64,000 nucleotides of DNA, from positions 32,001 to 96,000 of IMG/VR virus record IMGVR_UViG_3300031555_004524; one strand, given 5' to 3'. The notes beneath the pieces are model-generated. The model was not told the DNA's origin and ran no database searches. It saw only the letters and a list, made by a program, of their open reading frames with translations. The position numbers were made by a program, and so were the translations under genes. How positions within the stretch are numbered: position 1 is the stretch's first letter; each line of letters opens with the position of its first letter. Positions 48,004 to 49,998 of the stretch are shown here, piece by piece. The stretch is from a virus (taxonomy: Duplodnaviria > Caudoviricetes).

Positions 48004-48155
48004 CGTAAGTAATTATTATTTATTATAAATATCTAATAACACTTTCCCCCTTCATAGTCCCATCATGTATGAAACTCCACACTAAGTATATAATCTTAGT
48101 GGATCACTGTATACAGTGATCGGGGCTTAAGTTCCCGAATACGGTTTCGGTACAA
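48004..48155 (-). ncRNA. Putative TnpB omegaRNA scaffold (guide predicted from exon 2)
   Basis: Structured, GC-richer segment 3' of tnpB: GUACCGAA..UUCGGGAAC, AAGCCCC..GAAGGGGG, two internal hairpins. Confidence 0.6.
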
Positions 48156-48185
48156 TTATATCCGTAATATTTATTTAGATGAATA

Positions 48186-49448
48186 TTATACGAAATTTAA
48201 TGTAGGATAAATAGCTAAATTTTTAGCAGCATTATCATCTCGATTTATAACTAATCCACATACTGGGCATCTATATATTTTTCTAGCCCCAATATTATGA
48301 ATATTTCCACATGAACTGCATCTATTAGTAGATGGATATTTTTTATCAGCTCTAATTATAGGAATACCATGCATTTGGCATTTGTATACTATTATTTCTT
48401 GAACCTTATATAAGCAATGTTCAAGTATATTAGCATTATATGCTTGCTTAGCAGACATTGGTATTCTTGATGTATCTTTTATAAGCATATCTGAAACTTT
48501 TAAATCTTCAATAACAACAGCTTGAGGGTTTAGTGCTATTATATTATGAGATACATAATTATGAACTTCGTTCAGTTTTCTGTTATACTTTTTACGATAA
48601 TATTTATTTATTTTACAAATAGTTTTATCCATATTTTTCGTTCTAATACCATCACACTTCTTGAGTCTCGAAGCATTAATATTATACTGCCTATTTAATT
48701 TTGTTTGAAGTCTTTTTATTTTCTTGGACTCCTTATCAATATTAGGCAATTGTATTTTTATCCCATTTGAATCAACTATCCAATTTGTTTTACTACATCC
48801 TAAGTCAATTCCTATAGTATCACTATATGGACTATTTTCTATGATATTATGCATCTTATCATAGTTAGAAAAATTCATATTATCTGATTTTTTCATAGTA
48901 AAACTTAAATAGTAATTTTCACCATCAAATGTTATTCTTGGGTTATAATATTCTCTATATCTAGGATCATCTTTATATGTAGAACTTTTACCTATACAAT
49001 ATTCTTTTGGTATATGTCCACATAAAATAGTTCCAATTTTTTTAGAAATTTTAACTGAAGATTTTCCTATAGTTAATCTATCTGCTCTTATAGCCATACT
49101 TTGAGCTATAGATTTCTTAGATTTATATTTAGGATAATCGCATTTTTTAGCTAAATACATTTTGAATGCATTAACAGCATCCCATAATGCAATTTTCATA
49201 GTAGTTGAATCGTATTCCAATAACCATGAATTTTCTGGCTTATTTTTAAATTCAGTAAATAAATTATTTATATCGAATTGCGATAATATCTTATTCGTAT
49301 TTTTAAAATATTCACTTTCAATTTCTATTGCAAAATTGTAGATATATCTCATAATCCCAAAATATCTTTTTATAATATCTTTTTGTTCATCAGTTGGATA
49401 TAATTGTATTTTATTTCCTATATATTCAATATCACTCATATATTTCAC
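48186..49448 (-). CDS. tnpB: TnpB RNA-guided endonuclease (IS200/IS605/IS607 family); likely start ATG 49439
   Basis: N-terminal LYPTDEQ..FG..RYIYN; RuvC-I IGIDLG, RuvC-II VIEDL, Zn finger CSSC..CPVC, RuvC-III RDDNAAKN. Confidence 0.92.
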   Translation of the reverse strand: MKYMSDIEYIGNKIQLYPTDEQKDIIKRYFGIMRYIYNFAIEIESEYFKNTNKILSQFDINNLFTEFKNKPENSWLLEYDSTTMKIALWDAVNAFKMYLAKKCDYPKYKSKKSIAQSMAIRADRLTIGKSSVKISKKIGTILCGHIPKEYCIGKSSTYKDDPRYREYYNPRITFDGENYYLSFTMKKSDNMNFSNYDKMHNIIENSPYSDTIGIDLGCSKTNWIVDSNGIKIQLPNIDKESKKIKRLQTKLNRQYNINASRLKKCDGIRTKNMDKTICKINKYYRKKYNRKLNEVHNYVSHNIIALNPQAVVIEDLKVSDMLIKDTSRIPMSAKQAYNANILEHCLYKVQEIIVYKCQMHGIPIIRADKKYPSTNRCSSCGNIHNIGARKIYRCPVCGLVINRDDNAAKNLAIYPTLNFV

Positions 49449-49454
49449 CCTCCT

Positions 49455-49483
49455 TTCATAAAAATATTTTTTATGAAGTTGTT
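49455..49483 (-). promoter_or_regulatory. Intron-internal late promoter plus hairpin next to the tnpB RBS
   Basis: AACAACTTCATAA at 49483-49471; 10-bp hairpin TTCATAAAAA-ATA-TTTTTATGAA directly before AGGAGG. Confidence 0.55.
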
Positions 49484-49998
49484 AGGGTTGATATAAATAT
49501 ATAATATATTAGATATTTAATATTAAATTTATAATTACCTTATTTCATTATAATCGCAACTTATAATGCATGGTCAATTCCATGTCACTTCCATTACAGA
49601 ACGTGCGTAGATCATTTGTCCATCCGTTAATATTAACGGAGAGGTATTTTTCTTCCTCCTAGATCTATCATAGTAGATCTGCTTGAGGTTCTACATTAAG
49701 GCTTTCGCCGCCCCCGCCAGGGGCTGATCGTTGAACGTCTAACCATTAAGATTAGTTCGCTGCTAAAGATGGGCTTGTTATCGAATACTTAGGACTTATA
49801 TCATTCTAGACGATCAATAATATAAGCTTTTATTTCACCATATATTCATCCGTATTATATTTTTTCTGCTTTCGCAACCATCACGCTTATCTTTGCAGAT
49901 TACGTTGTGGAGAATACGGCTCTTAACCCACTTCCTAGCATTTAACTCCTTTGGAACACACCCATCACTGGATATGCTGTGAATTGCTGTTAAGCTAC

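Follow-up and report, generated by a model that had tools for sequence, protein, structure and literature searches.

A transposase-less IStron in the RNA polymerase gene of an uncultured jumbo phage as a candidate for RNA-guided homing

In the IMG/VR virus record IMGVR_UViG_3300031555_004524, the gene of an RNA polymerase (RNAP) beta-like protein is interrupted by an insert without a transposase gene. How can such an insert persist in an essential phage gene, and can its TnpB do the work of a homing endonuclease, as an earlier note made from the letters of this DNA had proposed? The analysed stretch, below called the window, comprises 64,000 nucleotides, bases 32001-96000 of the 248,149-bp record, which has 29% G+C and is rated complete. 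Positions are those of the window unless stated otherwise. The host of the insert is an uncultured AR9-like jumbo gut phage with a genome of 248 kb. We confirmed the observation from which the earlier note started: a group I intron core, a tnpB gene and a structured 3' tail lie together inside the RNAP beta-like gene. Judged by its sequence, the insert is a transposase-less group B (IS607-type) IStron, a group I intron combined with tnpB, and it is related to the IStron of the Clostridium botulinum phage c-st. The best explanation of the results, which we hold with slightly more confidence than doubt, is that this transposase-less IStron with its TnpB spreads by RNA-guided homing.

The exon-1 open reading frame (ORF) has 594 codons (51780..49999, minus strand) and ends in the residues ...TPIRFG. 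It matches the Pfam family RNA_pol_Rpb2_6 (1.5e-14), and its closest cultured relatives are the beta subunits of the Bacillus phages AR9 and PBS1, with 31.6% identity. Past the insert, the reading frame resumes as EMETGDL (48003 downward), and the split at RFG/EME is codon-exact (here and below, a slash in a protein or nucleotide motif marks the insertion point). Predicted excision of the element rejoins RFG/EME and makes the host ORF whole, the spliced junction reading ...AGATTCGGTG-AAATGGAAACT. Thus, the continuity of the ORF and the Pfam match bear out the 1995-nt insert described earlier, and its former interval, 48004..49998, is equivalent to 48003..49997 in the register favoured here. 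Both the element and tnpB are present in one copy in the 248-kb genome. The features of the locus are as follows:

49998..51780, minus strand: exon 1 of the RNA polymerase beta-like gene, ending in ...IRFG and the G of a Glu codon
48003..49997, minus strand: the whole IStron, 1995 nt, starting with UAGCUUAAC and ending with ...UUACGG, in the register given by P1/P10 covariation
49546..49997, minus strand: group I ribozyme, IA-like, P1-P9.2, from RNAalifold and pair counts on alignment A2
49979..49981, minus strand: internal guide sequence CAC, intron +17..+19, which pairs with exon GUG
49440..49545, minus strand: AT-rich spacer with the ribosome-binding site GGAGG (49449..49453), nine bases before the tnpB ATG
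48186..49439, minus strand: tnpB, 417 aa from ATG (420 aa from an upstream GTG), RuvC triad intact
48003..48185, minus strand: 3' tail, putative omegaRNA scaffold, which may begin inside the end of tnpB
49998..50001, minus strand: GGTG, whose last three bases form the P1 strand, and predicted target-adjacent motif (TAM) by analogy with the TGGG of CboIStron
47983..48002, minus strand: predicted guide, the first 20 nt of exon 2, AAAUGGAAACUGGCGAUUUA, placed as in IS607-type omegaRNAs with the scaffold end ..CGG
47569..48002, minus strand: exon 2 of the RNA polymerase beta-like gene, (E)METGDLL..., collinear with full-length homologues of 730-760 aa

The ribozyme was assessed by comparison with related elements. 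About 39 TnpB homologues were found at 38-57% identity, many of them on contigs of 230-267 kb. Eleven of these were viewed in their genomic context, and together with the window copy they make up the twelve family members considered below. The 5' parts of the twelve members (alignment A2) fold into P1, P2, P3, P4, P5 with extensions, P6, P7, P7.1, P7.2, P8, P9, P9.1 and P9.2. P2 is capped by a GNRA loop, P3 forms a pseudoknot with P7, and the extended P5 domain carries two GAAA-capped hairpins. P7 is built from the R-like GUUCAACGAUCA and the S-like AAAUGAUCUAC, and an optional extra hairpin is present between P7.1 and P7.2. Because P7.1 and P7.2 are present, we assigned the intron to subgroup IA, the subgroup reported for IStron introns (PMC4227781). 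Standard pairs occupy 95.0% of the cells in the twelve members, compared with 36-42% when the partners are slid by one to three columns. Compensatory changes on both sides were found at 68 of the 109 pairs, compared with 12-18 after sliding. In the shuffle control, 0 of 500 shuffles reached any of five measures of the ribozyme fold. The covariation across the twelve members indicates that the group I core is real, as the earlier note held, despite the silence of Rfam, whose model RF00028 overlooks the whole intron family even at permissive settings. A by-eye assignment of P4 (CUGC with GCAG) was dropped for the one supported by covariation.

The splice sites carry a one-base ambiguity: a G begins both the intron and exon 2, which gives two registers with the same spliced product. 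Family covariation makes ...GGTG/UAGC...ACGG/AAAUGG the likely register. In it, the last exon base is a G that pairs with C, CGG closes the intron, and the U previously placed at the 5' splice site is probably misplaced by one base, which leaves the spliced product unchanged. The triplet at intron +17..+19, just before a conserved AGC, always complements the last three bases of the exon. The exon and internal guide triplets are GUG with CAC in five elements, GCG with CGC in seven, GAG with CUC in one and GGU with ACC in one. The U just 5' of CAC pairs with the first base of exon 2 (P10). This first pair is A:U in nine of the twelve tnpB-bearing elements and in the relative L106; the exceptions are G:C in L098, G:U in L102 and U:A in L104a. 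P1 and P10 were found to change together with the flanks in all 13 elements. At the same RFG/EME site, the exon GGC-G of the relatives L106 and L187 pairs with CGC, and the GGU-G of the window pairs with CAC. All twelve members, and the ORF-less relatives L106 and L187, have the 3' end ...ACGG. P1 (GUG with CAC) and P10 would remove 49997..48003, rejoin RFG/EME and keep the essential RNAP subunit intact.

The tnpB product matched the Pfam domains HTH_OrfB_IS605, Cas12f1-like_TNB and OrfB_IS605, the last with 26.7 bits, which is under the cut-off of 30.5. A search of the Protein Data Bank showed homology to solved TnpB structures, including ISDra2 TnpB. Alignment with 28 homologues showed no variation at the RuvC residues D215 and E314 and hardly any at D404 (numbered from the GTG start of the 420-aa ORF), and the four Cys of the zinc finger CxxC...CxxC are kept. 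Pfam, the structural matches and this conservation thus agree with the intact tnpB and the three RuvC acidic residues reported before. The sequence GAAAGGAGG(TG), with a strong ribosome-binding site, lies ahead of tnpB in 11 of the 12 elements, and L010 has the weaker GAAAGGGG. The ratio of nonsynonymous to synonymous substitution rates (dN/dS) is 0.23-0.32 in unsaturated family pairs, which means purifying selection on tnpB.

No gene of a transposase accompanies tnpB. The 549 nt between the 5' splice site and tnpB are taken up by the ribozyme. The Y1 (PF01797) and serine recombinase (PF00239) domains were not found in the whole 248-kb genome, and neither family had a match in six IStron-bearing phage records (this genome and five from IMG/VR), three of which are complete. 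One complete record of 235 kb has three tnpB copies and no serine recombinase. The lack of TnpA, first noticed in the element and the window, thus extends to the whole genome and to five further IStron-bearing records. It does not exclude membership of group B, since the published group B family includes orfA-deleted and orfB-only members (PMC4227781).

We compared the insert with the IStrons described so far. It is not a new kind of intron: its ribozyme, tail and termini are homologous to those of the c-st IStron (PMC4227781), which is listed as a group B IStron (PMC4227781). The group is marked by an exon-terminal G paired to C and by a CGG 3' end (PMC4227781; PMC13565253). The ribozyme profile of the family matches the c-st IStron intron with E=4e-8, and the c-st TnpB is 30% identical to that of the window. 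The c-st tail has the same GUACCG...CGGGAAUUUAAG(U/C)CC block, the purine-rich AAGAGGAAAG motif and the ACGG end. CbISt3 and CbISt4 (phages c-st and D-1873) and CboIStron (plasmid p1BKT015925) are like the window element in having a 5' IA ribozyme and a downstream co-oriented tnpB (PMC4227781; 10.1101/2023.11.20.567912). In group B IStrons, as here, the scaffold abuts the 3' splice site, the G at the exon end is paired to C, the element ends in CGG and a G-rich motif lies upstream; the P5 region, the R and S elements and the tail motif are recognisably homologous. In contrast to these IStrons, no tnpA or tnpA remnant was found in the element, the genome or the five related records, and the flank is GGYG, whereas the published flanks are TGGG, AGGG and GAGG. 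The window family also differs in its residence in AR9-like jumbo phages, at conserved motifs of essential genes. CsISt1 of Clostridium sporogenes, as published, is likewise a group B element that has kept tnpB and lost tnpA ('ORF B only') (PMC4227781), but it is chromosomal and the window element is phage-borne.

The 3' tail of 183 nt folds better than its shuffles (z = -2.8). It contains the hairpin CCGAA-ACCGUA-UUCGG (48135..48150) and a long-range helix of CCCC (48122..48125) with GGGG (48046..48050), which encloses three hairpins. The tail closes with a terminal AU hairpin followed by CGG (48003..48005). The hairpin with the ACCG loop is common to all family members, and its stem covaries (CCGAA with UUCGG, CCGGA with UCCGG, CCCAU with AUGGG, UUCGA with UCGAA). 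Past it come UUAAG and then four bases that pair with NNGG in the purine-rich gaa-NNGG-gaa, about 45 nt from the end. The pairs of this long-range helix are CCCC with GGGG, CCCA with UGGG, CCUA with UAGG, CCUU with AAGG, CCUC with GAGG and CUCA with UGAG, and a strict anchored script assigned it in 10 of 13 sequences. The enclosed hairpins vary among relatives, and in this variable middle the tails could not be aligned reliably with MAFFT (A3); then follow the terminal AU-rich hairpin and (U)ACGG. Thus, the folding score and the covarying helices support the structured tail that had been noticed.

CboIStron has been studied by experiment: its TAM is TGGG, its omegaRNA scaffold ends in UCGG, the 3' flank supplies the guide, and splicing competes with guide-RNA production (bioRxiv 10.1101/2023.11.20.567912). 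For the window element, we set the TAM, the length of the guide and the point where the omegaRNA begins by analogy. The guide would be AAAUGGAAACUGGCGA... from 48002 downward, the TAM would be GGTG (50001..49998), and the predicted cleavage target is GGTG-AAATGGAAACTGGCGA / GGTG-AAATGGAAACTGGCGATTTA. Previously, the guide had been placed in exon 2 and the TAM at the end of exon 1. Both positions were kept, with two corrections: the guide most likely starts one base later (AAAUGGAAACUGG...), and by analogy with CboIStron (TGGG) GGTG is a more likely TAM than TTCGGT. At the position of the TAM, the twelve family sites read GGYG (10), AGAG (1) and GGGT (1).

Homing requires alleles without the element, and we looked for them among relatives of the host gene. 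Of 120 exon-1 homologues, most (about 107) are full length, 724-771 aa, and 11 stop at 595-603 aa, as here; the closest relatives of exon 1 include both forms. Closer relatives reach 71-72% identity in the RNAP protein. The RFG/EME site is empty in 56 of 58 readable IMG/VR alleles. In the empty alleles L129 and L143, the predicted guide is matched at 15 of 16 positions, 12 of 12 in the seed, next to GGTG or GGAG; these phages are about 40-44% identical in the RNAP beta-like protein. Thus, the 120 homologues and 58 readable alleles show a conserved motif of an essential gene that is occupied only sporadically, and intron-less alleles with a near-perfect guide match next to a GGNG motif do exist in related phages, as the earlier note had expected. 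RNA-guided homing into intron-less relatives is plausible on this comparison. The purifying selection on tnpB, its ribosome-binding site, the negative transposase search in six phage records and a RecA-like gene two genes upstream, described below, also count in its favour. For IS607 IStrons, TnpB homing has been shown in E. coli, and related introns have repeatedly exchanged TnpB and homing endonucleases (10.1101/2023.11.20.567912).

We propose the following course of events. Part of the transcripts would stay unspliced and give rise to an omegaRNA that takes the first 16-20 nt of exon 2 as its guide. Loaded with this omegaRNA, TnpB would recognise GGTG followed by AAATGGAAACTGG..., a combination that should be found only in intron-less alleles, and would cut such alleles in co-infecting related phages. 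The phage recombinase would repair the cut from the intron-bearing template, by which the element is copied in; a failed repair would damage the rival phage. The phage's own copy should be immune, because its TAM and target are 2 kb apart and ACGG, not GGTG, precedes its own guide (these bases differ from GGTG at 3 of 4 positions).

The other family members allowed us to see where such elements reside. In all twelve, the ribozyme is followed by tnpB on the same strand. In the eleven examined relatives, the element is co-stranded with the flanking genes and has 446-576 nt before tnpB and 117-243 nt after it. In each member, a long ORF becomes continuous again once the element is taken out at the conserved termini. 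Besides RFG/EME, the following ORFs are split:

RNAP beta, second site: ALTG/DPYH
GyrB: KGLG/EMN and YKG/LGEM
GyrA: VIG/EYHPHGD
DNA polymerase B (PolB)
a second RNAP-like protein: KTG/DKLIYG
a protein split at VG/DGTTSA
long ORFs with no recognisable function: DVSG/GYEQD and TTPG/DLTT
smaller ORFs: ISDR/EFEG (L010) and SYG/EDN (L014)

The flank is nearly always a Gly codon and the first base of an Asp or Glu codon (GGYG/A). In one locus (L104 1-4930), two family IStrons lie within 3 kb of a 33-kb contig, in gyrB (YKG/LGEM) and gyrA (VIG/EYHPHGD). For the L014 element, a split of the tubulin gene was considered and rejected: the right end of the element is 128 nt upstream of the tubulin start, near the end of a small upstream ORF. 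In IMG/VR, the single TnpB retrieved no close relative, and the TnpB alignment retrieved relatives only at <=35% identity. Many more distant phage TnpBs in IMG/VR (~30% identity) also have this ribozyme just upstream (L031, L094, L056, L024, L092, L028, L095, L064 and others, at ~1900-2430 of each locus). IStrons seem to be widespread in uncultured phages.

The same ribozyme family also occurs with another cargo or with none. The window phage itself has a second group I intron outside the window, at ~137.1-138.3 kb (L186 2132-3300, minus strand). It splits an RNAP beta'-like gene (PF00623) and holds in its P6 loop the ORF of a 306-aa NUMOD4/HNH_3 endonuclease. Thus, on sequence evidence the phage appears to hold genes of both a protein-guided and an RNA-guided intron nuclease. 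A copy with a NUMOD4/HNH_3 ORF in P6 (L100 5506-6485) and an ORF-less copy (L102 7712-8137) each lie a few kb from a TnpB-bearing one. The TnpB cargo is always located after P9.2, with the scaffold abutting the 3' splice site, and the HNH cargo in the P6 loop. The position after P9.2 fits, because a guide derived from the exon requires exactly this position. The RFG/EME site of L106 and L187 is occupied by the same ribozyme, ORF-less and ~80% identical, with only the last ~37 nt of the tail left, and that of L134 by an ORF-less sister ribozyme in a different register. An unannotated ORF-less group I intron of ~400 nt lies at R(V)G/EME of rpoB in the cultured Listeria phage LPJP1 (MZ422438; L185, ~159050-159470). 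The LPJP1 record lists a truncated rpoB and a separate 'hypothetical protein', and the DNA ligase is also in two pieces (ligA_1, ligA_2). The ORF-less and HNH introns of AR9-like phages thus share with the window element the R(F/V)G/EME site (LPJP1) or the ribozyme family (L106, L187, L100), but have neither tnpB nor an omegaRNA-like tail; the LPJP1 intron, unlike the window element, also has the canonical U at the exon end.

A comparable case is known from the jumbo phage PhiPA3, where the gp210 intron is likewise a group I intron in a conserved RNAP motif (PMC11620839). The gp210 endonuclease of this virion-RNAP intron targets the intron-less allele of a competitor (PMC11620839). It differs from the present case in that gp210 is a protein-guided HNH nickase encoded in an internal loop, whereas here TnpB is encoded at the 3' end and its predicted guide comes from exon 2.

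As for the surroundings of the host gene, a RecA/UvsX-like ATPase is encoded at 52067-53323 (minus strand), two genes upstream of RNAP beta; its match to Pfam RecA (3.5e-5) is below the cut-off. The gene order tubulin, RecA-like, RNAP beta, ligase is conserved in the relatives L106 and L187.

Several results weigh against RNA-guided homing of a group I IStron. First, the Rfam model RF00028 (Intron_gpI) gave no match to 3 kb or to 451 nt, whether the gathering score or E<=10 was applied; given the comparative fold, we judged this miss to be a false negative. Second, the TAM is inferred, and at its position the window copy reads TCGGTG compared with GGGTG in the closest sampled sisters. Third, the other occupied alleles examined at the RFG/EME site (L106, L187, L134 and LPJP1) are ORF-less, and no second TnpB-bearing copy there documents homing. 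Fourth, L003, L004 and L008 carry elements that share 83-90% identity over 2 kb, yet are located in RNAP beta, GyrB and a third gene; their flanks are unrelated, and all the sites read GGGTG/A. These sisters in three unrelated genes show that the family also reaches new sites, which homing alone cannot do. According to the earlier note, identical elements at many unrelated sites together with a trans-acting TnpA would point to an ordinary IStron. We found highly similar sisters in three genes, and no TnpA was found. A trans-acting host IS607 transposase, or reverse splicing via the same short P1/P10 pairings, are possible routes to the new sites.

The first of these routes leads to the strongest of the alternatives, which we still consider unlikely: an ordinary IStron is moved by an IS607 serine transposase acting in trans from the host or another element, TnpB only restores copies after excision, and the RNAP site is a tolerated accident made harmless by splicing. 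The 83-90% identical elements in three unrelated genes of related phages fit this scheme, the GGYG/A target resembles the G-rich target of IS607, and TnpA-less IStrons mobilised in trans are known (PMC4227781; 10.1101/2023.11.20.567912). However, PF00239 and PF01797 were unmatched in the six phage records mentioned above, three of them complete, and the TnpB clade (alignment A5) had no relative in 185,579 prokaryote genomes, which is weak evidence of absence given the limited sensitivity of the two-pattern scan. The junction also overlaps by one base, not two, unlike the product of a serine recombinase with a GG core. Such a GG-core junction (empty site = xxGG+yy) was rejected for this copy, as it would leave the gene one base short.

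Another possibility, to which we give a low probability, is that TnpB, like the HNH gp210 of PhiPA3, chiefly attacks co-infecting relatives (interference or marker exclusion) and that the intron is copied little or not at all. The guide matches empty alleles of phages whose flanks are too diverged for easy recombination (40-47% protein identity), and the jumbo-phage RNAP intron provides a precedent (PMC11620839). However, such a function overlaps with homing rather than excluding it, and closer relatives, at 71-72% protein identity, would permit recombination. It is similarly improbable that tnpB and the tail are a passenger being lost while the intron persists by vertical descent and splicing alone. 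This would agree with the same-site ORF-less versions, which retain only the last ~37 nt of the tail, and with the single copy in this genome, but not with the dN/dS of 0.23-0.32, the catalytic residues, the strong ribosome-binding site and the tail helices that covary across the twelve elements.

Finally, a beta subunit made as two polypeptides, with an insertion sequence between two genes and no intron, is very improbable: although gene callers report two ORFs and jumbo-phage RNA polymerases are often divided into several genes, the insert interrupts the invariant RFGEME motif itself and the codons run on exactly across it, nothing at the junction gives exon 2 a start context of its own, both the ribozyme fold and the P1/P10 covariation indicate splicing, and most homologues are single proteins of 730-760 aa.

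RNA-guided homing of a transposase-less IStron thus remains our preferred explanation for this locus. More tentatively, and with some doubt, we suggest for the whole family a phage-restricted IStron lineage without transposase that lives as RNA-guided homing introns, possibly also as weapons against rivals, in conserved Gly-Asp/Glu codons of essential jumbo-phage genes, with TnpB in the role that HNH enzymes have in the sister introns. If this is true, the elements must reach new sites by some means that does not involve a transposase of their own, for example by reverse splicing, which would make a new guide at the new site.

IStrons are so far known from Clostridia, Bacillus and two botulinum phages, and their presence in phages has already been published (PMC4227781); our literature search found no description of IStrons in jumbo phages or in RNA polymerase genes. 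On sequence grounds, the window family appears to be a new phage lineage of IStrons, and its value would be that of a natural test case and not of a new mechanism. The Rfam group I model misses the family, and gene callers therefore cut polymerase, gyrase and terminase genes short in jumbo-phage records, that of LPJP1 among them. Surveys based on Rfam will find too few phage introns and too many 'split' genes. The conjecture that TnpA-less IStrons spread by intron homing was put forward in a 2026 review (PMC13565253), and the family offers natural cases for it: TnpB-bearing alleles are found alongside empty, ORF-less and HNH-bearing ones, and the insertion sites are in invariant motifs of RNAP, gyrase and DNA polymerase. 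With these alleles it can be tested whether an RNA-guided nuclease replaces a protein homing endonuclease, how the splicing of an essential mRNA is balanced against the production of guide RNA, and whether such elements decide the outcome of phage co-infection.

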